Shown piece by piece: positions 3,236-64,000 of a stretch of 64,000 nucleotides of DNA. The DNA comes from Gemmatales bacterium. Its GTDB lineage: Bacteria > Planctomycetota > Planctomycetia > Gemmatales > HRBIN36. The stretch lies in NCBI GenBank assembly GCA_046350055.1, contig JAXMBC010000001.1, positions 1,214,660-1,278,659 of the forward strand. Direction: 5' to 3'. Position 1 is the first letter of the stretch; every line of letters begins with the position of its first letter. Below the pieces are notes generated by a model that made no database searches, had not been told where the DNA came from, and was given only the letters and a program-made list of their open reading frames with translations. The translations under genes and the position numbers were made by a program.

Positions 3236-4324
3236 CTACTTCTTCTTCTTCACCTCTTCCAGTAAGCTCCGGGCTTCTACCACCTGCTTCGTATCATCGT
3301 AATCGCTGATGATCTGCTTCAGGAAGTCCTCGGCAATACTGTAATCCTTCACCTTCATTGCCCGCTTGGCGAAGTTCAGTTTCGAGAGTGCTGCCTTCTC
3401 GCGCGGATCGAGTTTCTCCTCCGCAGGCTTCTCCTTCTCAGCCTTCGTCACTTCCTTGCTGCTCTCCGGTGCTGTCTTGTCCGGGCTGGCTTGTGCCACC
3501 GTTGTCGTACGGCGAGGAATAATCACCTTCTTGTCCTTCAGCAGTGTCTTCACTTCGCTCAGATCGATGAAGGTAGATAACTGGTTGGCCGAGGTGATGC
3601 CACCCTGGGTAACACCTACCAGCTCTCCTTCATCATTCACCAGCGGGCCGCCTGAATCACCTTTGTTGGTTGGATTGGAGCTTTCAATCATGCGGGCTTC
3701 GATGGTCAGCGATTCCCCCTGCCCGATCTGCACCACAAACTTCTTGTCGTAGATGCTGCGAACACTGCCATCGGTATAGCTCCACATGCCACCCGCCCCG
3801 GTGTTGCCAATAGTATGTACTCGCGAACTGGGCCGTGGACTATTCTGGGCCAGTGGCAGCGTCGTTACTCCCTTGGGCAGTTTCTGGCCTGCATCGAATT
3901 GCACTTCGACCAGGGCCAGGTCTTTGTTCTTCAGGTACGTCACAATCTTGCCCCGGAAGGTATAGATCGGATCGCCGCTGCTTTGCATGTACTTGCTGCG
4001 ATCCTGCTCCACTTCCCCCCGGCTGTTCTTGACCGGGAACATCACCCGCACTTCCGCATGGTTGCCATCGCTCTTCACACACGGAGCCACGACATGATAA
4101 TTGGTGATGATCAGGGGCAAATTGGTGCGGGGAGACAGCCCGATGAATGATCCGGAACCCGTCGCTGCCCGGCGACTCCCATCACCCAGGGGGGACAAGA
4201 CAAAGACAGTGCTGCGGAGTGTCTTGTCGAAGACGGTCTCACCCGCCTTGGTTCCCTGCGCGTGAATGGAGTGGCATGCAATTAGGAACAGGAGGATCGT
4301 CGCTGCGGCGCGCATAGGAAGCAC
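3236..4324 (-). CDS. secreted trypsin-like serine protease (S1C/DegP-type catalytic domain) with a Lys/Glu-rich C-terminal tail
   Basis: It has a signal-peptide-like N-terminus, a TNYHV histidine motif, a DLALV aspartate motif and a GDSGGPLV serine motif. Confidence 0.8.
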   Translation of the reverse strand: MLPMRAAATILLFLIACHSIHAQGTKAGETVFDKTLRSTVFVLSPLGDGSRRAATGSGSFIGLSPRTNLPLIITNYHVVAPCVKSDGNHAEVRVMFPVKNSRGEVEQDRSKYMQSSGDPIYTFRGKIVTYLKNKDLALVEVQFDAGQKLPKGVTTLPLAQNSPRPSSRVHTIGNTGAGGMWSYTDGSVRSIYDKKFVVQIGQGESLTIEARMIESSNPTNKGDSGGPLVNDEGELVGVTQGGITSANQLSTFIDLSEVKTLLKDKKVIIPRRTTTVAQASPDKTAPESSKEVTKAEKEKPAEEKLDPREKAALSKLNFAKRAMKVKDYSIAEDFLKQIISDYDDTKQVVEARSLLEEVKKKK

Positions 4325-4514: not shown

Positions 4515-4886
4515 ATGGTTCGCATCCTGTCCCTCTTCGCCCTCGCGCTCATCGTCGTCACTCCTTCCTTGGCTGACGACAAGATCGATGGCAAACTCCT
4601 CCTCGGCAAATGGGAACCCACCGGCGACAAGGTCCCCCCGGGACTCAAGGCTGTCATCGACTTCCAGAAAGATGACAAGGTCGTTGTCGAAGTCGACTTC
4701 AATGGCAAGTCGCAGAAGCTCGAAGGCAAGTACAAGATCGATGGCAACAAACTGGAAATGACCATGAAAAACCCCGACGGCCAGGAACGCTCCCAGAAGA
4801 TGACGATCGTCAAACTCAGCGCCAAGGAAGTCACCATCAAGGACGAAGACAAGAACGAAGAGCAGGTGCTGAAGAAGGTCTCGTGA
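4515..4886 (+). CDS. small secreted lipocalin-like protein (resembles the Gemmata paralogous family TIGR03066)
   Basis: It has a signal peptide followed by the pattern GKWEP...F.KDDKV...GKY.IDGNKLE. Confidence 0.55.
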   Translation: MVRILSLFALALIVVTPSLADDKIDGKLLLGKWEPTGDKVPPGLKAVIDFQKDDKVVVEVDFNGKSQKLEGKYKIDGNKLEMTMKNPDGQERSQKMTIVKLSAKEVTIKDEDKNEEQVLKKVS

Positions 4887-5191: not shown

Positions 5192-7645
5192 GTGAGGCAA
5201 CCCATGTCCACTGCACCAGAAATCCAGTCGTCACCGCCACCTCCTTCATTCCTCGAAAGACTCCTCTCTCCGCAGGGTATCCAGGCACTGCTGGGCACGG
5301 GTGGAGCGTTGTTCGTCGGCGGCCTCATCACCTGGCTGGCGACGCTGGGAGTATTTGATCATCCGCTGGTGCTTGCTGCCTGTCTGGGTGGGGTGAACCT
5401 GGCGTTGCTGTTTGCCGGCTTTGCCCTGGTGCTGCGGTCCCGATATCAACTCGCAGGACTGGCACTGACGCTGCTGGCGTGCCTGGTGATGCCCTTGCAT
5501 TTGTGGTTCTATCACGCCCAGCACCTGCTCACCTTTGACAACCATCTCTGGGCAGCTGCGCTGGTGATTTCGTTGCTCTATGCCCTGACGGCCCGGGTGC
5601 TGCAGAACCTCTGGTTCGTGCCTATTTTCCTGGGTGGGATCGCGATGACCACGCTGTTGATCCTCGCAGATCTGGGACAGTTCTGGCAGGTGACGGCTCC
5701 AGCCATCGCCCTGGTGGGCATGGGGCTGGTGGCGATCCACGTCGAACGGCTCTTCACGCAGGATGCCGCCAGCCCGTTCCGACGGGAACGATTCGGGCTG
5801 GCCTTCTTCTGGAGCGGACATGCCTTGCTGGGACTGGGCCTCCTGATGGTGCTGGTCGCACAACTGGCCGGCGGACCGTTGTATGCTCATTACACCAAAT
5901 CGATCTACGATCAATGGAGCTTCACACGCACGGAGCTGGTGACGACACAGTCGGGCAAAGGTCTGGCACTATTCCTGGTACTCGTGGGAGTGTATGCCCA
6001 TCTCTATTCCGATATGGTGGTTCGTCGCAAGGGGTACTGCCTGCAGATTGCAGCTCTGCTGCTGGTGTGGGTCGAGTTCATCGTCATTGATCTGCTGAAC
6101 ATCTCGTTGAGCATCGAATCGCTCCTGGGACTGCTGGCCGGTACCGGCTTGCTGATTCAACTGCTGCACCGCCTGGTGGGGCATCGGCTGCCGGGGCAGA
6201 TGCCGGTGCTGCCGTTCCTGGCAAGCCTGCTGAGCATCGGTGCCACAATCGTCGGGCTGTTCTGCTACTTCACGGAGAATGTGCATTACGTATCCAGTGA
6301 ACTATCGCTTCACACGATTCAATCCCTGCCAACATTGCTGTTATCGATGGCGGTGGCTGCTGTTGCCCTGGCTGGCGGGTCGTTCACTTCGACTGACAGG
6401 AAAGCGAAGCTGTATCACAGCGGGTTCGGGCTGGCGGTGCTGCTCGTCGGTACACTCGCGATTGGTTGCTATGCAGTGGCGAACTGGTATGTCCAGTGTG
6501 CCCTGGTTCTGGGGATGGTGTGTGTGGCTGTCGTGGTGTCCTGGCAGCTGCGACAGTTGCGGGAGATCGGTCAGTTCGCCCATCTCTTCGCTGCCTTCTG
6601 GCTGCTGGTGGGTATGCCTAAGCTGCTGGCTCTGGGCAGCAGCGACATCTGGCTCATCGTAGGTGTGCTGTCTCTGGCTCTGTTGTTCTATGCACTGTGC
6701 ACCGTGCTGCTCAAGCAGCGTGGGGCGTTCGCCCTGGCGCTGCTCAGTCTGGTGCTGATTGTGCTGCACGTGTTTGCCTGGCTGCAACTGGTGCTGGCAT
6801 ACAAGATGGCAGCGGGTGCAGTCCTGGGTGCGAGCCTGCTGGTTGCGGGCAAGGCAACTGCTCGTTCTGCGTCCCTGGCAGCCAGTGCCCGCGTATTGAC
6901 GAAGATGGGGTCGGTGATCTTCTTTGTCTCGACCCTGGCAACCATTCTGCTGGGCGTGCAGACACTCGTGGCTTACACCTCACATGCGGTCATCTGGCCG
7001 GTGTTCTTCAGTCTGCTGCTGGAAGGCATCCTGGCTGCAGTGTTCTACCTGATGAACAAGAAGGATGTGTCAGCGAACCTCTTCTTCGCTACGGCTGTAA
7101 CCAACGCCAGCCTGGCGGTCGTTCTCCTGACGACGATGCTGGAACTGCCGATGTGGCGGAAGCTGGAAGTGGCAAGCGTGGGGCTGGGTCTGTTCATGAC
7201 CGTGCTCGGCTTCCGGGCCTGGTTGCAGGAGGTGCAGGAGCGTCATCAGCAGCCTTCGGTCTCGCCCATGTTCCTGCTCGGTTCGTTGCTGGTGGGTGTG
7301 CCCATGGTCCTGGTAGTCATGGGGTACCGCAGCAGCGGGCAGTTCATGGTCCTGGACGAAGCCTCGATGTTCATCGTGGGACTGGTGATGCTGGGCCTCG
7401 GTTGCCTGTGTCAGCTCCGCATCCCCGCGATGGCGGGGGCAGCGTTGACGCTGCTGTATCTGGCAGGCCTGCTGCTGTTCGTGCCGTGGGGTCAGCTGGG
7501 AACAGCAGCCCTGGTGCTGGCTGGTGGCGGTGCCGGACTGTTCCTGATTGGCCTGGGTCTGAGCATCTTCCGCGACAGGCTGCTGGCTTTGCCACAGCAG
7601 GTGAAGCAGCGGCAGGGCATCTTTCAGGTGCTGGGCTGGAGGTAA
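5192..7645 (+). CDS. large polytopic integral membrane protein, function unknown
   Basis: The 817-aa ORF is almost entirely a series of hydrophobic helices. Codon bias is good. Confidence 0.6.
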   Translation: MRQPMSTAPEIQSSPPPPSFLERLLSPQGIQALLGTGGALFVGGLITWLATLGVFDHPLVLAACLGGVNLALLFAGFALVLRSRYQLAGLALTLLACLVMPLHLWFYHAQHLLTFDNHLWAAALVISLLYALTARVLQNLWFVPIFLGGIAMTTLLILADLGQFWQVTAPAIALVGMGLVAIHVERLFTQDAASPFRRERFGLAFFWSGHALLGLGLLMVLVAQLAGGPLYAHYTKSIYDQWSFTRTELVTTQSGKGLALFLVLVGVYAHLYSDMVVRRKGYCLQIAALLLVWVEFIVIDLLNISLSIESLLGLLAGTGLLIQLLHRLVGHRLPGQMPVLPFLASLLSIGATIVGLFCYFTENVHYVSSELSLHTIQSLPTLLLSMAVAAVALAGGSFTSTDRKAKLYHSGFGLAVLLVGTLAIGCYAVANWYVQCALVLGMVCVAVVVSWQLRQLREIGQFAHLFAAFWLLVGMPKLLALGSSDIWLIVGVLSLALLFYALCTVLLKQRGAFALALLSLVLIVLHVFAWLQLVLAYKMAAGAVLGASLLVAGKATARSASLAASARVLTKMGSVIFFVSTLATILLGVQTLVAYTSHAVIWPVFFSLLLEGILAAVFYLMNKKDVSANLFFATAVTNASLAVVLLTTMLELPMWRKLEVASVGLGLFMTVLGFRAWLQEVQERHQQPSVSPMFLLGSLLVGVPMVLVVMGYRSSGQFMVLDEASMFIVGLVMLGLGCLCQLRIPAMAGAALTLLYLAGLLLFVPWGQLGTAALVLAGGGAGLFLIGLGLSIFRDRLLALPQQVKQRQGIFQVLGWR

Positions 7646-9953: not shown

Positions 9954-9980
9954 CATTAACCTGGGTGTTCATGCCGTGCA

Positions 9981-10676
9981 CTATCGGCTGATTGTCAGAT
10001 TGGCGTCGATCACCTGACGGCGACGATAGTAATAGCCACCGATGCCGCAGAGGGTCAAGCCCGCGATCATGGCGATGGTGGTCGGTTCGGGTACAGACAC
10101 TGCATAGAGCTCAAACGCGACATCAGGCGCTACACTCGCCCAAGGTCCGGGATTCGTGACATTGGCAGTCTCAGCATGGTCGAATCCTACGGTGGAAATT
10201 GCTTCCTGCCAACCCATGACGGTTCCATCCGAGGCACTGCCCCAGGTACCGTCTCGCAGCGCCAGCCAATAGGTGCCTGCTGTCAGTACAGGAGCACCGG
10301 AAAAGACAGCGTCTACTTGAAAGATTTCCCGTCCCGTACCAGAAAGCAGCCCGGTCGTTGTCACGCTGGCAGCCACATCATTCCCGCTGAACAAAATAGT
10401 GCTGGGGATGCCACCACTGTTGGCATAGAGCGCCCATCCCAGCGTGCCGGAGAAATTGTTTGCCACCCCATCCAGCACGCCTGATTGTGCACGGTCTGCC
10501 AGCCAGACTCGCATACTCGACAGGGTCGTGGAACTGGTAAGCGTAAAGTCGTTGGCAACGACGAAGGTTGTTATGCTAAAATTATTGCCTGTCTGCAGAA
10601 ACGGCTGAGACCACACTTGGGCCGACGCTGGGACTGCCAAACCGAGTGCGACAACAATTGAATACAATAGACGCAT
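9981..10676 (-). CDS. PEP-CTERM sorting-domain protein
   Basis: It has a signal peptide. The C-terminus is VPEPTTIAMIAGLTLCGIGGYYYRRRQ, i.e. the PEP motif, a TM helix and a basic tail. Confidence 0.8.
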   Translation of the reverse strand: MRLLYSIVVALGLAVPASAQVWSQPFLQTGNNFSITTFVVANDFTLTSSTTLSSMRVWLADRAQSGVLDGVANNFSGTLGWALYANSGGIPSTILFSGNDVAASVTTTGLLSGTGREIFQVDAVFSGAPVLTAGTYWLALRDGTWGSASDGTVMGWQEAISTVGFDHAETANVTNPGPWASVAPDVAFELYAVSVPEPTTIAMIAGLTLCGIGGYYYRRRQVIDANLTISR

Positions 10677-49006: not shown

Positions 49007-50377
49007 ATGCACCGCTGGCAAGGATGCCTGTTACTCCTCATCGCTGGGCCGTTATGGGCTCAGGAATGGCGTCCTGTCTCGCAAATACCGGCGGAGCCGA
49101 CTGCCCCTGTCATCAAACTGGGCAAGCCACGGCTGACTCGCAGCGAAACTCCCGAACTGGTAGCCCAGCCACTGCCTCGGGAATCCATCAAGTATCAATC
49201 CACTCGGTACAACGATCTGGCCAGCGTGCCCGAACCAGTCTTTGGCGGCCAGCCACTCAACCTGCTGCAAACCCGCTACCAGGGGCCGGGCAGTGCTGCC
49301 GAAGAAGCATTCAACTGCGGCCAGGTTCCCGGCTCAGGCGGCGGAGCAGCACCCCCTGCTGGAGCACCTGCTCCATACTACGGTCAGACTGCTCCTCCCC
49401 CCGGTGCTGCTCCGGGTGCCCCTGCACCGTACTACGGCCAGCCAGGGGCTCCTCCACCGGGCGCCCCGGCTTCCAGCACTACACCCTGGTATCAGCCCGT
49501 CAAAGACTGCTGGAACCGCATCTTCGGTGGCGGCAGTTCCAATAACGGCATACCTGGCACCTGGGATGCCCGCAGCGATCAGGGCTTCAAGGACTTCATT
49601 TCGCCCGTCAGCAACCCGACCTACTTCGAAGACCCCCGTTCGCTCACCGAGTTCCGCTTCATTGGCACCTACCAGAAATCGCCTGACGACAACATCCTGA
49701 TGGATGGCGGTCAGATCCTCGACTTCAACTTCCAGGGACGCATCAGCATCAATGACAACTGGTCGCTGACGTTGCAGCGGCTGGGCTTCTCCAACGTCAA
49801 ACCCGGCAGTGCTGCTCTCGGTGGCTACTCCGGCGGCACCGGGTTTAACGATCTGCAAATGGGCGTCAAGTACACCTTCCTGCGTGATACCCGCAGCGAA
49901 AGCCTGCTCGCTGCGGGCGTGAGCTTTGAGCTGCCCATCGGCAGCAGCAATGTCCTCTCGGGCAGTGGCACCGGCATCACCCCCTACCTGAGCTACGGCC
50001 AGGGCTTCATGGATAACTGGCACCTGCTTGCTGCAGGCGGTTACCGCTTCGGCATCTCCAGCGGCAGCAGCGACTTCCTCTTCCTCAGTGGCCACCTCGA
50101 TTATGGCTTCTTCAAGCGGTTCTATCCGCTCGTCGAAATGAACTGGTACTACTACACCGGCAACGGCGACCGCCAGCCAGTCGACTTTGAAGGTGGCGAT
50201 CTCAAGAATATCGGCGCCAGTGGCGTGGCAGGCAGAAGCCTCGTCACACTGGCCGGTGGCTTCCGCTTCAAGTTCAGCGAATCGCTCCAGGCCGGTATCA
50301 TCTACGAGATGCCTGTCGTCGGCACCGATATGCTGGAAAAGTACCGGGTGATGTTGGATTTCATCATTCGGTTCTAA
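49007..50377 (+). CDS. putative outer-membrane beta-barrel protein with a Pro/Gly/Ala-rich linker
   Basis: It has a signal peptide (MHRWQGCLLLLIAGPLWAQ) and an alternating-pattern C-terminal half ending ...LDFIIRF. Confidence 0.45.
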   Translation: MHRWQGCLLLLIAGPLWAQEWRPVSQIPAEPTAPVIKLGKPRLTRSETPELVAQPLPRESIKYQSTRYNDLASVPEPVFGGQPLNLLQTRYQGPGSAAEEAFNCGQVPGSGGGAAPPAGAPAPYYGQTAPPPGAAPGAPAPYYGQPGAPPPGAPASSTTPWYQPVKDCWNRIFGGGSSNNGIPGTWDARSDQGFKDFISPVSNPTYFEDPRSLTEFRFIGTYQKSPDDNILMDGGQILDFNFQGRISINDNWSLTLQRLGFSNVKPGSAALGGYSGGTGFNDLQMGVKYTFLRDTRSESLLAAGVSFELPIGSSNVLSGSGTGITPYLSYGQGFMDNWHLLAAGGYRFGISSGSSDFLFLSGHLDYGFFKRFYPLVEMNWYYYTGNGDRQPVDFEGGDLKNIGASGVAGRSLVTLAGGFRFKFSESLQAGIIYEMPVVGTDMLEKYRVMLDFIIRF

Positions 50378-50447
50378 GGTTGTAACGTCATTATTTAGAG
50401 CCTCACCAACGATTTGATGAGGCCATCACATTTAAAGTTTAGAGCGT

Positions 50448-50636
50448 TTATTTAGATTGCTGGCTAGATTCTTGCTGAGTAACCTTCAATTGCGAACTAA
50501 CTACTGGAGTTCGTGCAACGTTTACAGTGGGCTTTGCTGAGTTTTCCAATAGGTTCTGCTTCCACTCAGGCCAAGTTTGCACGACTCTCTGTGCAATCTC
50601 CTGTTGTCTCTTAAATTCGTCCCTGCTCATCATCAT
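50448..50636 (-). CDS. small hypothetical protein (62 aa), translationally coupled to the deaminase gene
   Basis: The sequence ATGATGATGA overlaps the deaminase stop codon. The gene lies in the AT-rich islet. Confidence 0.4.
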   Translation of the reverse strand: MMMSRDEFKRQQEIAQRVVQTWPEWKQNLLENSAKPTVNVARTPVVSSQLKVTQQESSQQSK

Positions 50637-51542
50637 GCCTCCTGTACTCCAAGCATTTCGGATTGGAGCTTACCAAAGAGTCTACAAGCATTTGCCTCAT
50701 CTTCCAGATATGAGGTGGGCTTCATTTGTATCCTCAGTCGTGATTTCTCGATAGTCCAATCAACTTTAGTGCCATCTGAGTTCTTCCTAACAATATCGTA
50801 ACTCGCTCCAAGGTTCATTGAGAATAAGTCGAAGAACCTTCGAGGACCAATTCCAACAAATGCGTCGAATTTAACCCTTGACGATTCTTCCGCTAATCCA
50901 GGTGGGCAGATTGCGTCTTCATGGAAGTCAAGGGCTTTGCTTTTTGGATATGGCTCGACATAAACAACCCGCTTAACCCCTGCTGCAATAATATGCTTAG
51001 CACAGTTGTGGCATGGAAAGGTCGTGCAGTACAATGTTGTACCTATGGTTGACAAACCGTTTCGTGAACAACAAAGAAGTGCCTCCATCTCGGCATGGAC
51101 TACTCTGCCGTACTCAGTCAAGTCACGAAGAGGACTTTCATCCAGCAAGCTCCTCACTTTTGCTTCATCTGCAGCAGGAATCGCAATCTTCAATCTTTCT
51201 ACGATGCGATCGATAATCTCAAGCTGTTCAGCTCTATTTGAATCACCGGCCTTTCGCATATAGTCTCTTCCATTCGGCGTGTCACATATTCTTCTAGTAG
51301 TCAGATCTCTATTGGGCCAATAAAGGCCACCCTGAGCCTTTGGGCAGTCATTTGCACCTGTTGACAATATCTGAGAATCTATTGTAACTACTGCTCCTAC
51401 CTGCCTCGACATATCAGCTGATCTTAACGCAGAAGCAAATGCCATAAACATTGCATGTTCATCGAAGGTTGGCGTGACATAAGGATCACCAAACCATAGC
51501 GATACTATTCTTGTAATATCATGTCTAAGTTGATCGCGATTA

Positions 51543-52389
51543 GGCCGTGTTGACATTGATCTAGCATAAGTTGGGGCAGAGCGGTAAACCAGTGAAGTCC
51601 AAGGAAGGATTTTCTGGAGAAAGATCATGCGACGATTCGAGCTCACGGATGAGCAGTGGGAGAAGATCAAGCACCTGCTGCCAGGCAAAGAAGGCGATTC
51701 AGGACGTACGGCCAAGGACAATCGACTCTTTATTGATGCTGTGTTGTGGACGGCCCGCACCGGTGCTCAGTGGCGTGATTTGCCTGCTCGCTTTGGTAAC
51801 TGGAACAGCATCTATCAGCGGTTCAATCGCTGGGCCAAGGCGGGGCGTTGGCAGGAAATCTTTGAGCGAATGCAAGATCCTGATCTGGAATGGCTGCTGA
51901 TCGATTCGACGATTGTCAGGGCCCACCAGCATGCAGCAGGAGCCCTGAAAAAAGGGGAGACCAAGCGTTGGGACGATCTCGGGGAGGACTGGGAACCAAG
52001 GTCCACATTGCCTGCGAAGGGCTTGGGTTGCCAGTTCGCTTCCTGCTAACTGGTGGCGAAGTGCATGATGTCACGCAGGCGTCAGCCTTGATCGATGGAA
52101 TCTCCGCGGAACAAGTCATCGCCGACAAGGGCTACGATAGCGATGCAGTCGTTGAGAAGATTGAGGAGCAAGGCGGTACGGCCATTATTCCTTCCAAGAG
52201 CAACCGCAAAATGCCTCGTCCCCATGACCGCGCGACCTATCAGGAACGGAATCGGATTGAGCGTTTGATCAATCGTCTGAAACAATGTCGCCGGATCGCG
52301 ACTCGCTACGACAAAACCAGTCGCAACTTCCTGGCATTCCTCTACTTAGCGGGCACCATGCTCTGGCTGGCGTAATTGTCAACACGGCC
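51543..52389 (+). mobile_element. IS5-family (IS427-like) insertion sequence, 847 bp
   Basis: The 13-bp terminal inverted repeats are perfect: GGCCGTGTTGACA (51543-51555) and TGTCAACACGGCC (52377-52389). They are flanked by a TA direct duplication (51541-51542 and 52390-52391). Confidence 0.85.
51627..52375 (+). CDS. IS5-family DDE transposase, made from two frames joined by a -1 frameshift at an A6G run
   Basis: OrfA reads MRRFELTDEQWEKIKHLLPG...IVRAHQHAAGALKK. The slippery run GAAAAAAG is at 51947-51954. The downstream frame reads GDQALGRSRGGLGTKVHIA...DKGYDSD...RNRIERLINRLKQCRRIATRYDK. Confidence 0.8.
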
Positions 52390-53064
52390 TAGATGATATC
52401 CTGACAAAAAAGTCTGCTAAATGAAATGTTTTGTTCACACGTTGGCCATGAACGACATTTGTTTCATCGCTATCACGAGCAATCAGGCTTCTTGCTTGAT
52501 CTTCGCTCATTCCTCGATCAGTCTGAAGGTGAACGAGCCGCCGAGACTCATCCGCATGAACCCCAATCAATACGAACCCATGTGGATAAATCCGGCGTAA
52601 TTGCGCAACCTCTTCTGGCCGTTTCAGCGAATTAATAATGTAGGCTGTTTTTGGGGATGGTTTGGATTGGTCATTCTCCTTGTCTCGCTTTGCAAAAATC
52701 ATCGATGCAGCACCTAGTGCTAATATTTCACATTTGCCACTTGCCTCCCTTGCACGATTACCCGCATCCATGAGGTTACTAATGCGCATAAACTGACATG
52801 AACCATGGTCAGGTACAGTACACAAAGTCGGAATAACCTCTTCGGATACTTTCATTGAAATGACATTGTAGCCCGCTAGGTTCAATCGCTCCTTCAGCAA
52901 TTCAGTAATCAAAGTAGTTTCAGTACCAACTGCACTAACCAAGCCAATAACAAGTTCGGAATCGAAATCTGTCGTCATGTTATCAATCCTTTTAGTGAAC
53001 ATTCCATAGTATATTTGCAAAAATGAAGTAATGCAAAAAAACATATGCATATTAACGGTTACTT

Positions 53065-56370
<3,306 letters not shown>

Positions 56371-56546
56371 CGTGTCTCAAGTCCTGGGTGCTGAGTCCTG
56401 AGTGCTAATCTGCAGTCCGTACGGGGAGGTGGGACTATGGCATGATTTACGGAATGATGGCGCATTATGTAGGGTACGCGGGGCATACCTCACAGAAGTG
56501 GTCTGGATGCAACCGGCCACTCACGTCAGCGCACGGAATGCGGTGG

Positions 56547-56775
56547 CACGGAAACGCGGTATGTCCGCTTTTCCGTGTGAGAGTTGCTGTTGTGGTACGT
56601 CCAGGCACGGAGGAGACGGAGTACAGTCACCTCCATGGCACCCCAGCTCCCCGGGCACCCCGGCTGCAACATCCGAGGGTAAGCGGGTGCCATGCTCACG
56701 GCACGATGCCGTGAGCATGAGGAGGGGGAAGAGACTTCGCGAACGGAGCCGTGGCACGGTACTTGGTACTCCAAG
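56547..56775. repeat. cluster of module-A-like hairpins in the carB/OLD intergenic region
   Basis: X1 is CACGGAAA-C-GCGG TATGT CCGC-T-TTTCCGTG (56547-56577). X2 is CGGGTGC|CATGCTCACGGCA CGA TGCCGTGAGCATG|AGGAGG (56684-56725). A third hairpin is CTTGG TACT CCAAG (56762-56775). GGCACCCC/GGGCACCCCGG occurs at 56637-56662. Confidence 0.6.
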
Positions 56776-56981
56776 TGCAGTGAAGCCACGCGAAGGTATC
56801 ACGTGATCTCAGCACTGCTTGTTGAGTACACAAAACAGTGCCACAGCATACAATCGAATTTCAAAGCAGTGCCACCAAGCCTGAGCATGCCGTGTGATTT
56901 GACGTGGCAAGCTATGATGAACCTTGGTAACTTCTTCTACATCTTTCATTAATAAGGCGATTCGCAGGGCTAGGACAAACA

Positions 56982-58769
56982 ATGAACACATTACACCGAT
57001 TTACTCGTATCGATTTCGAACGATTCAAGGCTTTCGAGAAATTCAGTATACACCTGCGTCATTTCAACATACTTGTGGGCCCAAATAACGCTGGGAAGTC
57101 TACCATCTTAACAGCCTTCCGTATCTTGGCGGCGGCAATGAGAAAGGCAGTTGTCCGAAGGCCTGAAGTAGTCATGGGCCCAAAGGGTGAAACATTAGGT
57201 TATCACGTTGACATAGGTGCCATATCCGTAAGTGAGGAGAACATCTTTTTTAATTATGATGACACTGAACCGGCATCCGTCAGATTTTCACTATCGAATG
57301 GCAGAAGGCTGGTACTCTATTTTCCAGCAGAAACAAGAAGATGTAATTTAATATGCGAAAGTAGTGATCGTTGTGACAATCCTACGGCCTTTAAGAAACA
57401 GTATAGTTGTTCAATTGGCTTTGTGCCTGTTTTGGGGCCCGTCGAACATTTCGAACCACTCTACGAGAAGGAAGCAGCACGTCAGGCACTATTCAACTAC
57501 CATGCAGCAAGGAACTTCAGAAATATCTGGTATCATTATCCGGAGCAATTTTCAATTTTCCGTGAAACACTTAATCGAACTTGGCCAGGCATGGATGTTA
57601 AGCCACCTGAGATTGAGCGTTCGTTAGCGAGGCCTCGGCTCGTTATGTTTTGCCCAGAGCAGAGAATCCCTCGCGAAATCTGCTGGTCTGGGTTTGGGTT
57701 TCAAGTTTGGTGTCAAATGTTGACTCATATTATTCAATCTAAAGAAGCGTCATTGTTTCTAATTGATGAGCCTGACATCTATTTGCATGCAGAACTACAA
57801 CGTCAACTACTTGTATTACTTCGCAATCTCGGCCCTGATATCCTTATCGCTACTCATTCTACAGAAATCATTACCGAGTCCGAGCCAGATGATATTGTGC
57901 TTATTAATAAGGAACGCAAAAGCGCACGGCGGCTTAAGAACCCTGCAGAATTATTCGAGGTATTTCATCTATTGGGATCGAATCTGAATCCAATACTAAC
58001 GCAACTTGCCAGAACTCGTAAGGCTGTATTTGTGGAGGGAAAAGACTTCCAGATACTTGGGCGATTTGCGCAAAAGCTGAAGAAATCAAAAACCAGTGTA
58101 CGTGGAGGATTTGCAGTGATCCCAGTAGAAGGATTTAACCCACAAAAGATCAAGAGCTTAAAACACGGGATGGAGACGACTTTAGGTGGCAAGATTCTTG
58201 GAGCAGCAATACTTGATAAAGACTATCGATCCAATGAAGAATGCAGTTCTATTGAAAAAGAAACTGCGTTGTTTTGCGATATCGTATCGATCCATAAACG
58301 CAAAGAGATTGAGAACTTTTTGCTAGTTCCTAGCGCCATTGATCGAGCTGCACAGCGTCGTGTCTCAGATCAAGCAGCCCGATCAGGTAAGAAGGTGGAA
58401 TATAATGCATGTGCGCAGAAAGTACTAGAACAGTTTGCTGCTGAAAAAAAAGAGGCTGTAATTGCCCAGTATCTTTCAGGTAGACGAGCATTCGAAAGAG
58501 CGCGAAGCACAGGCTCTCACGATGCAACTTTGAGTGAATCTGTATTGAAGGAGTGTGGACGTGCATGGCAATCTTTCGATTCTCAAATGCTTCTTGTACC
58601 TGGAAAAGAGGCTTTGAGCGCAGTCAACCAGCAATTACAGAAAGATTATGGAGTAAGCATCACGCCCACAGCTATTATCGAAGCAATGCGTGTTGATGAA
58701 GTACCTTCCGAAATGACAGTGCTTATCGAGACGATCGAGCAATTTGCAAATCGAAGTATTACTAACTAA
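56982..58769 (+). CDS. OLD-family ABC-ATPase / Toprim nuclease-like protein (class-1 OLD or fused PARIS-like architecture)
   Basis: It has Walker A GPNNAGKST, Walker B LIDEPDIYLH and an H-loop IATHS. The C-terminal half carries Toprim-like VFVEGKDF (Glu) and ILDKDY (DxD). The gene is AT-rich. Confidence 0.65.
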   Translation: MNTLHRFTRIDFERFKAFEKFSIHLRHFNILVGPNNAGKSTILTAFRILAAAMRKAVVRRPEVVMGPKGETLGYHVDIGAISVSEENIFFNYDDTEPASVRFSLSNGRRLVLYFPAETRRCNLICESSDRCDNPTAFKKQYSCSIGFVPVLGPVEHFEPLYEKEAARQALFNYHAARNFRNIWYHYPEQFSIFRETLNRTWPGMDVKPPEIERSLARPRLVMFCPEQRIPREICWSGFGFQVWCQMLTHIIQSKEASLFLIDEPDIYLHAELQRQLLVLLRNLGPDILIATHSTEIITESEPDDIVLINKERKSARRLKNPAELFEVFHLLGSNLNPILTQLARTRKAVFVEGKDFQILGRFAQKLKKSKTSVRGGFAVIPVEGFNPQKIKSLKHGMETTLGGKILGAAILDKDYRSNEECSSIEKETALFCDIVSIHKRKEIENFLLVPSAIDRAAQRRVSDQAARSGKKVEYNACAQKVLEQFAAEKKEAVIAQYLSGRRAFERARSTGSHDATLSESVLKECGRAWQSFDSQMLLVPGKEALSAVNQQLQKDYGVSITPTAIIEAMRVDEVPSEMTVLIETIEQFANRSITN

Positions 58770-58916
58770 GAGCAAGCTAGTTGCCCCGAACACTCCCCGC
58801 TTCCCACGCTGTAACAGGATTGTCCAGTACTCCGGATGACCCTGCAAGACCACCGCTTCATTCTACCACTCGGGAACCCGGCCAGGTGCCCGGTAGGATC
58901 ATGAGGTTGCTGTGCC

Positions 58917-58946
58917 ACGGAGGTGAGGTACTCCTCTCCTCCGTGC
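58917..58946. repeat. module-A-type hairpin X3
   Basis: CACGGAGG-T-GAGG TACT CCTC-T-CCTCCGTG, preceded by CTGTGC. It has the same architecture as H1 of module A but entirely different stem sequence. Confidence 0.6.
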
Positions 58947-59123
58947 TGGCACTGCGACTCACCCCATAGAACGATCAAGGCTTGTCGTTGACACAGTCCC
59001 TGCAACACCAGATGCGACACTCCCTTTCGCCAACTCCCTGCCAGCCCTGCACTTACGACATTCACCGCGCGACATCCATGCGACACTCACCCAGGGGAAA
59101 CGGCCATTCCCTGGAGTACCCGC

Positions 59124-60233
59124 ATGTCCCTCGTACAACCCATCCAGCCGATTCACTTCGACCAGAAGTGGTTCTATCCGCAACTGCTACCCCAGTCGTG
59201 CGTCATCCTGCTCGATGGCGCCACCGGCGTGGGCAAATCCATGCTCTGTGCCCACCTGGCCACCCAGTTCTCCCACCACTTCCAGGAAGAGAAACGGGCC
59301 GCGACCCTCTTCGTCTCCGCCATGGAGCAGGAGATCAGCCGCAACCGTCACCTCGCCCACCTGAAATGCGACACCCGCTTCGTCGGCCAGGGAAACTTCC
59401 TCGACATGTTCAACTTCAGCAAAGAGTGTGGCGAGGATTTCCAGGCCTGTTTCCGCGCCTACCTCGATACCCTCATCTCCGAAGAGAAGCCCCTCGTTCT
59501 CGTCATCGACGACATCGAGGAGATGATCGGCAGTCTGAATCAGCACATTTCGAAGGACTCACAGGGCCGCTGGTGGGCCATCCTCGGCGAGATGGCTATC
59601 AAGCACCGCATCACCATCATCGTCACCCGCAGAAACGGCATGAACGCCGCCCGCCACTACGGCACCTTCAACCGGGCCGGCACCGAGTTCTGCGACTTCA
59701 TCCTCACCATGCACTGGCATCCCTACGACCCCAACAAGCGGGTCATCTCCATCGCCAAGAACCGCTACGGCGAGCTCGGCAACCAGTGGCACCTGAACCT
59801 CGACGGGGGCAAGCCGCAGTTGCAGTTCGTGGAACGCCATGAACATGTACGCCCATCCAAGTGCCCGCAAACCTGGGTCAGCGACCCCGGCATGGTCCAG
59901 GAAATGAGTCTGGCTGTCGAGGAGATCCGCGAGTTCATGCACGGCGAAGGGACGGTCACCACCGCCCTCAAGGAGCACATGAAGAAGAAGAACTACTCCG
60001 AACGCACCGTCAGACAGGCCACCGCACGCATGGGGCTGCGACTCGTCCGGCAAGGCCAGCAGTGGTGGTACCTGCCCACCGACTTCATGCGAACCGAGGC
60101 CATCCATAAGGAAGTCGCCGCAGCGCGCACACGTGCTGCCGGGGTGGTTCCCCAGGCACTACCTGAAACACAAAGCCCTGGTAAATCCGAAGACTCTACC
60201 CCTTGCACACGCGATGCCGAGGTCGCCGCGTGA
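59124..60233 (+). CDS. RecA/RepA-like P-loop ATPase (AAA_25-type) with a C-terminal wHTH-like region
   Basis: It has Walker A DGATGVGKS and Walker B LVLVIDDIEE, and reads ...ISIAKNRYGE. This type is typical of integrative-element or plasmid replication/primase modules. Confidence 0.55.
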   Translation: MSLVQPIQPIHFDQKWFYPQLLPQSCVILLDGATGVGKSMLCAHLATQFSHHFQEEKRAATLFVSAMEQEISRNRHLAHLKCDTRFVGQGNFLDMFNFSKECGEDFQACFRAYLDTLISEEKPLVLVIDDIEEMIGSLNQHISKDSQGRWWAILGEMAIKHRITIIVTRRNGMNAARHYGTFNRAGTEFCDFILTMHWHPYDPNKRVISIAKNRYGELGNQWHLNLDGGKPQLQFVERHEHVRPSKCPQTWVSDPGMVQEMSLAVEEIREFMHGEGTVTTALKEHMKKKNYSERTVRQATARMGLRLVRQGQQWWYLPTDFMRTEAIHKEVAAARTRAAGVVPQALPETQSPGKSEDSTPCTRDAEVAA

Positions 60234-60241
60234 GCTTGCTC

Positions 60242-61990
60242 TCACTCTTCATGCTTCGGTCGGCGACGGCCAAGAAACCATAGCATGAGCAGGAACACCA
60301 CTAAGCCAGCCGCGATTCTCCACCCGCGATGATAAAATCGAATAGGCAGCTTCCAGCCTTCGAGAGTTTTCGTGTACTTGGGGAAGCCATCAGTTGTCGT
60401 GGCATACTGGCAGGTAATCAGTGTCCTGCTTGCCTTTTGTAAGTTAGTCGGTTGAGCATAGCGATTTGGCAATGATCCTACTACTAGTCCGGTGCGGCGA
60501 TCATAAAAGCGTACTTCGCTGCGAACAGGTGGAAAAACGTAGTGGAGATACTTCTCGTACCAGGCTGGAGCTGTTACTACACTGCGCAATAGATGGAAGG
60601 AGTGCTTGGCACTCTGAGCATCGCAGATAATGGTATCGTCCGTGATATACGACCATCCGGTGGGGAGAAAGGGATTCTCGCCACCATCGGGCACCAATTG
60701 TGTTTGATCCACCAGTTGAAACTGGCCATCCCGGAGTTGTACTTGCGTGATACTGTCGAGTATGAGCATGCCACCGCTTTGTGGCTTCTCGGAATTCTGA
60801 TGGAAGTACCAGCGTTCGGGCTGGCTTGGATGGTGCACCGCATCCAGGTCAAAGCTGAGCATGTGAGGATGAGTTAACTCTTTGGGCCAGTGGAGCAACT
60901 TGCCTGTACTCACATGGGCGTACTGATACCCTAATTCAACAAAACCCTTGCTGCCACCTTCCTGGGAAATCCTAAGGACATCGCCCAGCGAATCAGTTCG
61001 AACTGCCACGGGCTTCGAGTATGGTTGGAAAGGAATAGTCATCGGTTGACCCGTGTGTCCCTGGTAGAGTAATACTCCCGCAGGCAGTACATGGTCACGA
61101 TTAGGATATCCTCTTCGCTTCATGGACGACTCCCACTTTACTGGGAGCAGGCTGTCGCCACATGCTATCCACGAAAGATTCGGGCCTACTTGAAGAGGCC
61201 AGGTCCACCGGAAAAGAGGAAGTGTCCAGTTTGCCAGTGGCGTGAGTGAGGGTTGGGCCGTCGTAGGCAACGCATAGGATTGCAACCAGGGCAGCCAGGT
61301 TCCTTCAGGTTCAGTCAAACTGATCCCGCTCAAGCGACCTGTAGAGTTTCTCGGATCCTTGGCAATGGTCGGCTTGGCCAGAAGGTGAGTCAGGGCCGAC
61401 CAGCCATCCACACTTTGCAGGACCAGTGCCGGCTCCCAGGGGAAGGTGGTTTGCACAAGAAAGTACGGTGCATTGTCAGGAGCGAAAGTCACTTCAAAAG
61501 GTGTGTCAGGGCTGGTGTTCCAGGTCTTAACGACCTGCTCCGTGGTGGCGGAAGTGAAATCCCAGCGTCGCAGCTGATACGAGACTCCATCCTCTGTCAC
61601 CACGCGAACAAACCGCCAGACGGTTTCGCCGATCATCCTCGGGTAGTGGCCATGGGTTTGCAGGCCCCAGAAGTCGTTCATGTCCACTGGTGTTTCCAGG
61701 CGATGCAACAAGCGTCCCGTGGCTGTGTTCAGAATGAGGATGGAAGTGTATTGTAGATTGATCCTTTCCAGGACCAGCAGCCAGGGCTGTGTGGCATGTT
61801 CCTCTATGACGCTGTATTGGTGCTGGAGGCTTTTGAAGGAGATGCTCCACAACGGACGTGGAGTCAGTACAAAATGCAAGCCTGTCCCAACAACCCCAGC
61901 TAACAGGCAAGCTATCAGGAATCGGCTGAATGTCAGTCCGCCTGCGCGTGGAGAATGGGAATGAGAAATCATCTTCACCCTCCACACCAC
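60242..61990 (-). CDS. large hypothetical protein anchored by N- and C-terminal TM helices
   Basis: A 582-aa ORF. I recognised no family. The start is uncertain. Confidence 0.45.
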   Translation of the reverse strand: MVWRVKMISHSHSPRAGGLTFSRFLIACLLAGVVGTGLHFVLTPRPLWSISFKSLQHQYSVIEEHATQPWLLVLERINLQYTSILILNTATGRLLHRLETPVDMNDFWGLQTHGHYPRMIGETVWRFVRVVTEDGVSYQLRRWDFTSATTEQVVKTWNTSPDTPFEVTFAPDNAPYFLVQTTFPWEPALVLQSVDGWSALTHLLAKPTIAKDPRNSTGRLSGISLTEPEGTWLPWLQSYALPTTAQPSLTPLANWTLPLFRWTWPLQVGPNLSWIACGDSLLPVKWESSMKRRGYPNRDHVLPAGVLLYQGHTGQPMTIPFQPYSKPVAVRTDSLGDVLRISQEGGSKGFVELGYQYAHVSTGKLLHWPKELTHPHMLSFDLDAVHHPSQPERWYFHQNSEKPQSGGMLILDSITQVQLRDGQFQLVDQTQLVPDGGENPFLPTGWSYITDDTIICDAQSAKHSFHLLRSVVTAPAWYEKYLHYVFPPVRSEVRFYDRRTGLVVGSLPNRYAQPTNLQKASRTLITCQYATTTDGFPKYTKTLEGWKLPIRFYHRGWRIAAGLVVFLLMLWFLGRRRPKHEE

Positions 61991-62015
61991 GTAAGGCTCA
62001 ATCAGCTGATCAGCA

Positions 62016-63947
<1,932 letters not shown>

Positions 63948-64000
63948 GAAGACCTCTAGCGGGACGGCTGATGCAGGCAGACAGATATTCGATTATTCTA

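Follow-up and report, generated by a model that had tools for sequence, protein, structure and literature searches.

What kind of protein is encoded by a solitary, AT-rich gene that stands among housekeeping genes in a planctomycete genome, and does it serve in defence against phages? The gene in question is located on the plus strand of a 64,000-nucleotide (nt) stretch of contig JAXMBC010000001.1 from a Gemmatales bacterium. This whole stretch is referred to here as the window, and the relatives of the gene are referred to as the family in counts made at the protein level. A preliminary description, made from the letters of the sequence, had presented the gene as a candidate single-gene defence of the OLD family, with an ATP-binding cassette (ABC)-type ATPase head and a Toprim nuclease region. 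The results presented below favour a stand-alone OLD-family ATP-dependent nuclease that is a candidate for a role in defence, and we place the probability of this interpretation at about 0.6.

The open reading frame (ORF) is complete, and its product of 595 amino acids (aa) is 100% identical to a protein in NCBI, MFO0812652.1, from a metagenome-assembled genome (MAG) of the Gemmatales, Planctomycetota. All motifs quoted in the preliminary description were located in this ORF, and they are not chance resemblances: the protein matches Pfam AAA_21 and AAA_15, and the motif residues are conserved in distant homologues. Conservation was assessed in two sets, consisting of 40 close homologues (A1) and of 47 divergent homologues with 31-59% identity (A2), and K39, D262, E263, H292, E352, D412, D414, E442 and E444 were invariant or nearly so in both. 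The matches to AAA_21 (E 1.4e-19, aa 28-297) and AAA_15 (E 4e-16) are above threshold and cover the N-terminal 300 residues. Profile matches of the same domain in the Protein Data Bank (PDB) include PtuA, GajA, the Thermus OLD and AriA, and the region LFLIDEPDIYLH was aligned with the Walker B motifs of PtuA, GajA and AriA. We identify the N-terminal part as a predicted ATPase head of the AAA_15/AAA_21 group (OLD, GajA, PtuA, AriA), in which Walker A, Walker B and the H-loop are intact. An insertion in this domain (aa ~130-235) is short and poorly modelled, with a predicted local distance difference test (pLDDT) score of 30-60, and may or may not hold a dimerisation domain of the type seen in the Thermus scotoductus (Ts) OLD.

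The C-terminal half was modelled separately with AlphaFold (residues 318-595), with a pLDDT of 90.5 and a predicted template modelling score of 0.85. Four parallel strands form a Toprim core in this model, where E352 ends strand beta1, D412-x-D414 ends beta3 and E442-x-E444 is located just past beta4. The best PDB matches in a Foldseek search with the model were two class 2 OLD structures comprising a Toprim plus a helical domain, 6njw and 6nk8 (probability 0.99-1.0), with E-values of ~4e-3 to 1e-2 and modest template modelling (TM) scores of 0.38-0.48. GajA ranked next, and AriB was outside the top 50 PDB matches. When the whole protein was modelled with AlphaFold (pLDDT 73), the model matched GajA, the effector of retron Eco8 and 6p74, each at a probability of 1.0. 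A profile of the 47 divergent members was aligned with the Ts OLD structure 6p74 over a stretch that runs from Walker B and takes in the Glu and DxD motifs of the Toprim (E 1.4e-15; family positions 256-425 to positions 272-445 of 6p74), and hhalign aligned this profile with P2 Old over the ATPase and the Toprim through DxD (98.6%, E 1.2e-15, 397 columns). The Toprim motifs that the preliminary description had placed in this region are thus borne out by a canonical predicted topology, by the class 2 OLD regions recovered with Foldseek and by the alignments to P2 Old and 6p74.

In Pfam, DUF4435 (PF14491) was matched at 14.5-16.7 bits, below the curated cut-off of 27, and at an E-value of 0.006 with the C-terminal half. 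Two of the 47 divergent members matched DUF4435 (E <= 0.01), both reaching E 1e-7, and six of the 47 matched OLD-like_TOPRIM. Because the DUF4435 match of the protein is below threshold, the Toprim assignment rests on the profile, structure and motif evidence. Neither a narrow profile of the C-terminal region nor the C-terminal half of a distant relative from Nostoc, used as queries, gave a match to the solved AriB or OLD structures. Taken together, the C-terminal half has a Toprim fold, with a set of acidic residues (E352, D355, D412, D414, E442, E444) that is suited to two metal ions.

The Toprim is followed by a helical bundle with a PGK motif, of which P540, G541 and K542 are invariant in A1, while in A2 G541 is invariant and K542 is present in at least 90% of the proteins. 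The two-metal site of the Bp OLD consists of E400, E404, D455, D457, T506 and E508 together with K562 of the helical domain (PMC6755086). From conservation and topology, we infer that K542 is a candidate equivalent of this catalytic lysine in class 2 OLD proteins. The active site of AriB consists of E26, D30, D88, E90 and E122, with a DxE motif and without a lysine (PMC10802264). The Glu, the second acidic residue and the Glu past beta4 of an AriB-type site are present in our protein, with a DxD motif rather than DxE and with the invariant K542 added. The features are listed in Table 1.

Table 1. Features of the OLD-family gene and its flanks, with positions in the protein and in the window.
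Feature	Protein position (aa)	Window position	Strand	Basis or remark
Structured upstream spacer		56542..56719	+	Hairpins 56547-56577, 56605-56641 and 56691-56719; RNA fold z-score -3.9
OLD-family ATPase-nuclease gene, complete	1-595	56982..58769	+	ORF listing; ATG start; 595 aa
N-terminal ABC-type ATPase domain	1-315	56982..57926	+	Pfam AAA_21, AAA_15; PDB profile matches
Walker A, GPNNAGKST	33-41 (K39)	57078..57104	+	G33, N35, N36, G38, K39 and S40 invariant throughout the divergent set (A2, 47 proteins)
Walker B and D-loop region, LFLIDEPDIYLH	258-269 (D262, E263)	57753..57788	+	D262 and E263 invariant
H-loop, IATHS	289-293 (H292)	57846..57860	+	T291 and H292 invariant
Toprim nuclease domain	~346-447	58017..58322	+	C-terminal model; conserved residues; hhalign; Foldseek
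Toprim Glu motif, VFVEGKDF	349-356 (E352, D355)			Candidate metal-binding residues
Toprim DxD motif, ILDKDY	410-415 (D412, D414)			Candidate metal-binding residues
KEIEN motif	(E442, E444)			Candidate metal-binding residues
C-terminal helical bundle, ~140 aa	~450-590	58329..58751	+	High-confidence predicted helices
PGK motif	(K542)	58599-58607	+	Within the C-terminal helical bundle
Downstream hairpin (58916-58945), inverted copy of 56605-56641		58912..58946	+	Inverted-repeat search

We compared the protein to the known classes of OLD systems. Class 1 OLD proteins are encoded by single genes, have 500-600 aa and are not accompanied by a helicase or reverse transcriptase (PMC7049728, PMC10568477, PMC12392090). 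By this published, context-based definition, the gene encodes a class 1 OLD nuclease, because it is a single isolated gene for 595 aa, next to which neither a helicase nor a reverse transcriptase nor a second, separate nuclease gene is present. The protein resembles class 1 proteins in being homologous to P2 Old over ~400 columns and to 6p74 through the Toprim, and class 1 genes are also typically located outside defence islands. It differs from P2 Old in its score with the PADLOC Old model, which was 71.7 bits and mostly N-terminal, whereas P2 Old itself reached 712 bits in a full-length match; by these scores it is placed outside the P2 Old subfamily. A further difference is that the family is not phage-borne. 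The helical bundle at the C-terminus is lacking in Ts OLD (6P74; PMC7049728), which has a helical dimerisation domain inserted in its ATPase, a feature of the solved example and not of the class 1 genomic definition.

The best structural matches belong to class 2, with GajA (8SM3) for the whole protein and Xcc/Bp OLD (6NJW, 6NK8) for the C-terminal region. A Toprim followed by a helical domain is the class 2 arrangement, and the acidic residues, together with the lysine of the helical domain, follow the layout of Bp OLD. However, the structural match is weak at the E-values and TM scores given above, the helical domain is longer than in Bp OLD and the spacing between E444 and K542 is 98 residues, as compared to 54 residues in Bp OLD. 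Nor is there an adjacent UvrD-like GajB helicase; among the 140 nearest neighbours in 80 loci, only one was GajB-like, and weakly so. The retron Eco8 system of class 3 also contains an ATPase-Toprim fusion and is matched over the full-length fold, but the sequence similarity is weak (E 1e-5) and no reverse transcriptase or non-coding RNA was found near the gene. None of the 25 most frequent neighbour families listed (1-3 members each) was a reverse-transcriptase family.

At the sequence level, the protein seems closest to the models for merged AriAB (PARIS, class 4), but only faintly and far below the level of a family member. The best PADLOC match was AriAB PDLC02981 (74.7 bits, E 1.6e-21), which is weak for a model of 694 positions. 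Two merged AriAB models were the only ones to match the C-terminal half by itself (E 5.9e-6 and 3.3e-4; 23 bits), and their best match across the family (~E 5e-29) is likewise weak. One rival explanation is that the gene is a merged PARIS system, in which the ATPase would sense phage anti-restriction proteins (Ocr-like DNA mimics) and a DUF4435-type Toprim would cleave host tRNA and thereby abort the infection. The faint DUF4435 matches, including the two members at E 1e-7, are in line with this, and so is the union of an ABC ATPase, a Toprim and a helical bundle in one polypeptide, since a Toprim followed by a C-terminal helical bundle is the layout of AriB (PMC10802264). Merged ariAB genes are a known variant (PMC11464382), and a distant relative of our protein is located in a BREX-1 operon, a setting in which PARIS-like modules have been reported (PMC12839542).

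Other features of the protein argue against a PARIS system. The DUF4435 score stays under the Pfam threshold while six of the 47 divergent members match OLD-like_TOPRIM, and the structural ranking is led by the C-terminal regions of class 2 OLD proteins. The DxD motif and the conserved helical-domain lysine contrast with the lysine-free DxE site of AriB (PMC10802264). The proteins also differ in length, as the AriA chains in the PDB have 464 aa and the ATPase here has ~150 aa fewer. We also searched for split, two-gene versions of the family and rejected them. All apparent C-terminal-only proteins, of 300-350 aa, start inside the ATPase domain and are therefore fragments, so that the family always consists of one fused polypeptide. 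We consider a PARIS system to be unlikely. The double label of class 1 OLD and fused AriAB-like protein used in the preliminary description was nevertheless fair, as the gene agrees with the class 1 definition and its C-terminal half matches merged AriAB models only, and weakly. The nuclease module looks atypical, being intermediate between an OLD-type Toprim and that of DUF4435/merged AriAB, and structurally more similar to class 2.

The spread of the family was examined next to the composition of the gene. More than 3,300 related proteins are present in the databases, of which the best 120, drawn from several phyla, share 60-90% full-length identity with our protein. Most complete homologues have 585-605 aa, and several relatives carry the NCBI name 'ATP-dependent nuclease'. 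A scan of one genome per species with two conserved peptides as query recovered relatives with 50-65% identity in 218 of 185,579 species genomes (~0.1%), a lower bound, in at least 8 phyla. The hosts include Planctomycetota, Verrucomicrobiota, Alpha- and Gammaproteobacteria, Desulfobacterota/Thermodesulfobacteriota, Nitrospirota, Acidobacteriota, Bipolaricaulota and Rhodothermaceae. No published mention of the family accessions was found in a search that left the supplements of two survey papers outside its scope.

The gene has a GC content of 43.3%, as compared to 57.9% in the remainder of the window, and the low-GC tract (~56800-58780) has the same extent as the ORF. The GC content at third codon positions is 0.38 in the OLD gene, 0.79 in carB and 0.83 in dxs, in agreement with the earlier remark that the gene is much richer in AT than these two genes. 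Across the family, the gene had a lower GC content than the flanking DNA at 74 of the 77 loci compared, with a mean difference of 12 points. The OLD gene is compositionally foreign.

A copy with 90% identity in a sister Gemmatales genome is located at a different locus, beside a gene of the beta-lactamase family and ~1.1 kb from an rRNA cluster. Between these two copies, the ratio of nonsynonymous to synonymous substitution rates is 0.057, with constraint on each of the three domains, showing that the gene is functional and under strong purifying selection. In three relatives with CarB proteins that are 86-92% identical to that of the window, the carB neighbourhood is without an OLD gene, and the homology to the window starts and stops exactly at carB. 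A clean empty-site comparison was thereby discarded, since carB is all that these relatives share with the window; the comparison shows the absence of the gene and does not define the ends of an insertion. The possibility that the gene is a conserved core gene, raised beforehand as an objection, is contradicted by its presence in only 218 species, by its different context even in the 90% identical sister copy and by its absence from the carB loci of the three close relatives. The gene is accessory, horizontally transferred and sporadic across phyla.

Its solitary state, proposed from the window, was found to extend to the family. In an all-against-all clustering of the flanking ORFs from 81 loci, no neighbour family was present in more than six loci, and a conserved partner gene was rejected on this basis; no helicase or reverse transcriptase was found as a partner. 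The 140 nearest neighbours were heterogeneous and mostly unrelated housekeeping genes, with few resolvases or transposases and few defence genes among them. In the window, the neighbours of the OLD gene are carB and a gene for an AAA_25 ATPase. The same pattern of mostly housekeeping neighbours has been reported for class 1 OLD genes (PMC10568477).

Such neighbours could also point to a cellular role outside defence, such as in DNA repair, replication-fork processing or cell-cycle control, for which the archaeal Cran1 provides a precedent (PMC12796447). The very high conservation across phyla, the strong purifying selection, the predominance of housekeeping genes in the vicinity (carB, gyrB, translation GTPases, rRNA genes) and the lack of enrichment in defence islands are all compatible with a function of this kind. 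It is difficult to reconcile with a patchy distribution over only ~0.1% of the species genomes, a systematically foreign composition, a locus that differs between sister genomes and absence from close relatives, and no link to any repair or replication operon was found. We regard a cellular role as very unlikely.

For the stand-alone nuclease, a role in defence is inferred from family membership and genomic behaviour; what sets the protein off and whether it acts on DNA or tRNA are likewise proposals. In the literature considered here, the characterised OLD-family systems of bacteria and phages act in phage defence (PMC10568477, PMC12392090, PMC13261556), and for class 1 a defence activity is reported there only for P2 Old, Vc OLD and, upon induced expression, E. 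coli YbjD. Two genomic observations are in favour of an association with defence, namely a distant full-length relative in a BREX-1 operon, and an anti-phage dCTP deaminase gene, apparently disrupted by an insertion sequence (IS), on the other side of carB. The distant relative (WP_114083283.1; L088 3998-5875) is a 625-aa 'AAA family ATPase' with ~23% identity, encoded on plasmid pNsp_c of Nostoc sp. ATCC 53789. It was aligned with the family profile from end to end (99.85%, E 7e-31, 547 columns), including the helical motifs EIENYLL and GKEAL. Its gene is located between pglX and pglZ, inside the operon; the gene of the window, like its close relatives, is instead a solitary gene in housekeeping surroundings. 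For OLD-ABC/Toprim modules that lie within BREX, a role as PARIS-like back-up effectors has been described (PMC12839542), and the position of the Nostoc gene connects the broader architecture to defence through guilt by association. A gene for a HEPN-domain protein was observed upstream of the Nostoc BREX-1 operon.

Several results weigh against a role in defence, or against a DNase in particular. There were no matches to the family among 50,697 phage genomes, and a sequence conservation of 50-65% across phyla is high for a defence gene. An association with defence islands was considered and rejected, as only a handful of defence or mobile-element genes were present among the 140 nearest neighbours, a count made with no control set, so that enrichment is unsupported. 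No defence-specific model scored above ~75 bits, as compared to 712 bits for P2 Old on its own model. The C-terminal half by itself is matched only by the merged AriAB models (E 6e-6 and 3e-4) and faintly by DUF4435, and this signal would point towards the tRNA-cleaving PARIS lineage rather than towards a DNase. Finally, the archaeal Cran1 shows that an OLD-family lineage need not be a defence protein (PMC12796447).

If the protein is a stand-alone defence nuclease, P2 Old, Vc OLD, GajA and PARIS can serve as templates for a sketch of its mechanism. In this sketch, the head would dimerise on ATP and act as a sensor or regulator, holding the nuclease inactive until an infection or another cue of invading DNA is perceived. 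The Toprim site would then cleave nucleic acid by two-metal catalysis, with K542 of the helical domain probably completing the active site in the manner of K562 in class 2 OLD proteins. The outcome would be a block of phage replication, or else abortive infection and cell death. Nicking or degradation of DNA appears somewhat more likely than cleavage of tRNA because of the DxD motif, the conserved lysine, the structural ranking and the matches to OLD-like_TOPRIM, but tRNA cleavage stays a serious alternative because of the AriAB and DUF4435 signal.

How the gene moves was examined from its flanks. The non-coding DNA on both sides is structured, as had been noted, with three hairpins in the upstream spacer and one hairpin downstream. 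The gene is enclosed by a 36-nt element (56605-56641) and a second, inverted copy of it (58912-58946), and neither half was found at any other place in the window. The segment 56542-56641 is 77% identical to positions 4579-4678 of the sister locus L006, at the same distance from the gene, so that the first ~100 nt of the spacer accompany the gene. The left copy of the element, with its adjacent hairpin, is recovered with 77-80% identity upstream of the sister gene, but the right copy is absent there and the homology stops at the stop codon. A transposon-like cassette bounded by the 36-nt inverted repeats was therefore rejected as a general boundary. The element may be a regulatory leader, a recombination scar or a dispersed repeat. 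A search of window positions 50000-64000 gave no Rfam match at gathering score, and known RNA families in the flanks were rejected. In similar copies (73-88% nucleotide identity) in unrelated contexts, homology is restricted to the ORF plus ~20 nt upstream and 25-50 nt downstream. Carriage by phages or plasmids was rejected as well, with no phage matches, and with matches in the plasmid collection only to Cupriavidus megareplicons and to the one distant Nostoc plasmid.

Integron cassettes with attC sites were also considered. Sites resembling attC were present at 4 of 80 loci, as compared to 2.9% of control positions, and are thus not enriched; none was found in the window, for which an integron cassette was rejected. 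In the deltaproteobacterial locus L033 (~3755-3830), an attC-like arrangement with a span of 70 nt was observed, consisting of GGCTAAC, which holds the stop codon, the palindrome CACCGGATTCC...GGAATCCGGTG and GTTAGCT. L018, L032 and L033 carry GTTAGCC ~22 nt upstream of the start codon, and a series of small ORFs on the same strand surrounds the gene. Neither further attC-like sites nor an integrase were found in the 8.7 kb of L033. The gene may be an integron-type cassette in this deltaproteobacterial lineage.

The bare extent of the shared segments could also suggest a selfish, gene-sized element that is mobile or addictive, which would use its nuclease to spread or to be retained (homing-like, or by post-segregational killing) and would confer phage defence only incidentally. 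Between copies in unrelated sites, nothing is shared beyond the ORF and ~20-50 nt on each side; these copies have no integrase or transposase consistently nearby, are AT-rich in nearly all hosts and are often inserted beside highly conserved genes, and one lineage has the attC-like site. Against this stand the failure to find conserved terminal repeats or a conserved target site, the right copy of the 36-nt element that is missing in the sister genome and the lack of enrichment of attC-like sites. We know of no homing endonuclease with an ATPase-Toprim-helical architecture. A selfish element is in our view highly improbable.

A bolder reading is that the proteins form a lineage of their own within the OLD superfamily, separate from both the P2 Old-like proteins and PARIS. 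They would be self-contained sensor-effectors, with a nuclease module between the DNase-type Toprim of OLD and the RNase-type AriB, and would move between phyla as bare gene-sized units without dedicated mobility genes, preferring sites beside conserved housekeeping genes. We consider this quite unlikely; if true, the lineage could follow a logic of its own in trigger and substrate and be transferred horizontally in a way that has so far gone unrecognised.

Copies of the gene are often located beside very conserved genes. carB (53065-56370) adjoins the gene in 5 of the 81 loci, comprising the window and, in opposite orientation, a Mesorhizobium-type lineage (L010, L017, L021, L040), and gyrB and genes for translation GTPases are among the other nearest neighbours. 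The sister copy is ~1.1 kb from a 23S-5S-16S rRNA cluster (L001 10878-15904). Placement beside conserved genes could be due to chance or be a hint on the route of acquisition. Just downstream of the sister homologue, a ~75-nt fragment matches the 3' end of 16S rRNA (AAAGGAGGTGATCCAACC...TACGGTTACCTTGTTACGACTT; L006 ~6955-7030, equal to L001 ~9955-10030). It is separate from the complete 16S gene, which is located ~0.9 kb further on, and may be a duplicated fragment or an artefact of MAG assembly. The 9-mer GTGCCACGG occurs six times in the window (25508, 28430, 28745, 40038, 56749 and 58912), as compared to 0.95 expected occurrences, and none of 100 shuffles reached six, which suggests a short motif dispersed in the genome.

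Two ORFs of normal GC content separate the OLD gene from dxs in the window. One (59124-60233, plus strand) encodes the RecA/KaiC-like AAA_25 ATPase of 369 aa (E 7.7e-10), and the other (60242-61990, minus strand) encodes a protein of 582 aa without a family match. Neither ORF is present at the carB locus of any of the three relatives compared. In two close relatives, the 5' spacer of carB contains a gene for a PIN toxin with a small partner ORF (L089 8194-8873; L090 8183-8874), and in one the 3' spacer contains a gene with a Bro-N domain (L090 12391-13209). It thus seems that the flanks of carB are a site of variation in this lineage.

The anti-phage dCTP deaminase gene across carB (50633-53170, minus strand) is apparently split by an IS5-like element (~51600-52380). 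Its kinase-like N-terminal part corresponds to ORF 52379..53170 (PADLOC dCTPase, E 2e-50; NCBIfam antiphage_deaminase, E 6e-46), and the zinc-deaminase part (HAEMEAL...PCHNC) is in ORF 50633..51760. Two overlapping ORFs for a DDE transposase (51627-52049 and 51890-52375) are located between the pieces of the deaminase gene. The pieces have a GC content of ~44%, and the IS ~55%. With a low-GC dCTP deaminase gene on one side and the low-GC OLD gene on the other, carB is therefore flanked on both sides by low-GC genes of the defence type.

Single-gene OLD proteins (class 1) are the least understood branch of a major family of anti-phage proteins. The window gene is a clean representative of a large, highly conserved clade that is not captured by specific defence-finder models and that joins the gene context of class 1 with a class 2 or AriB-like nuclease module. 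It is a well-preserved member of a large uncharacterised clade within the known OLD family, and not a new kind of system. We view it as a sound but unsurprising defence candidate, the value of which would lie in offering a clean candidate for experiments in an under-studied class and phylum. The clade could show whether such proteins defend alone, what is sensed and whether a lysine together with a DxD motif predicts cleavage of DNA over tRNA, and it would widen the annotation of defence genes to the Planctomycetota and other environmental phyla.

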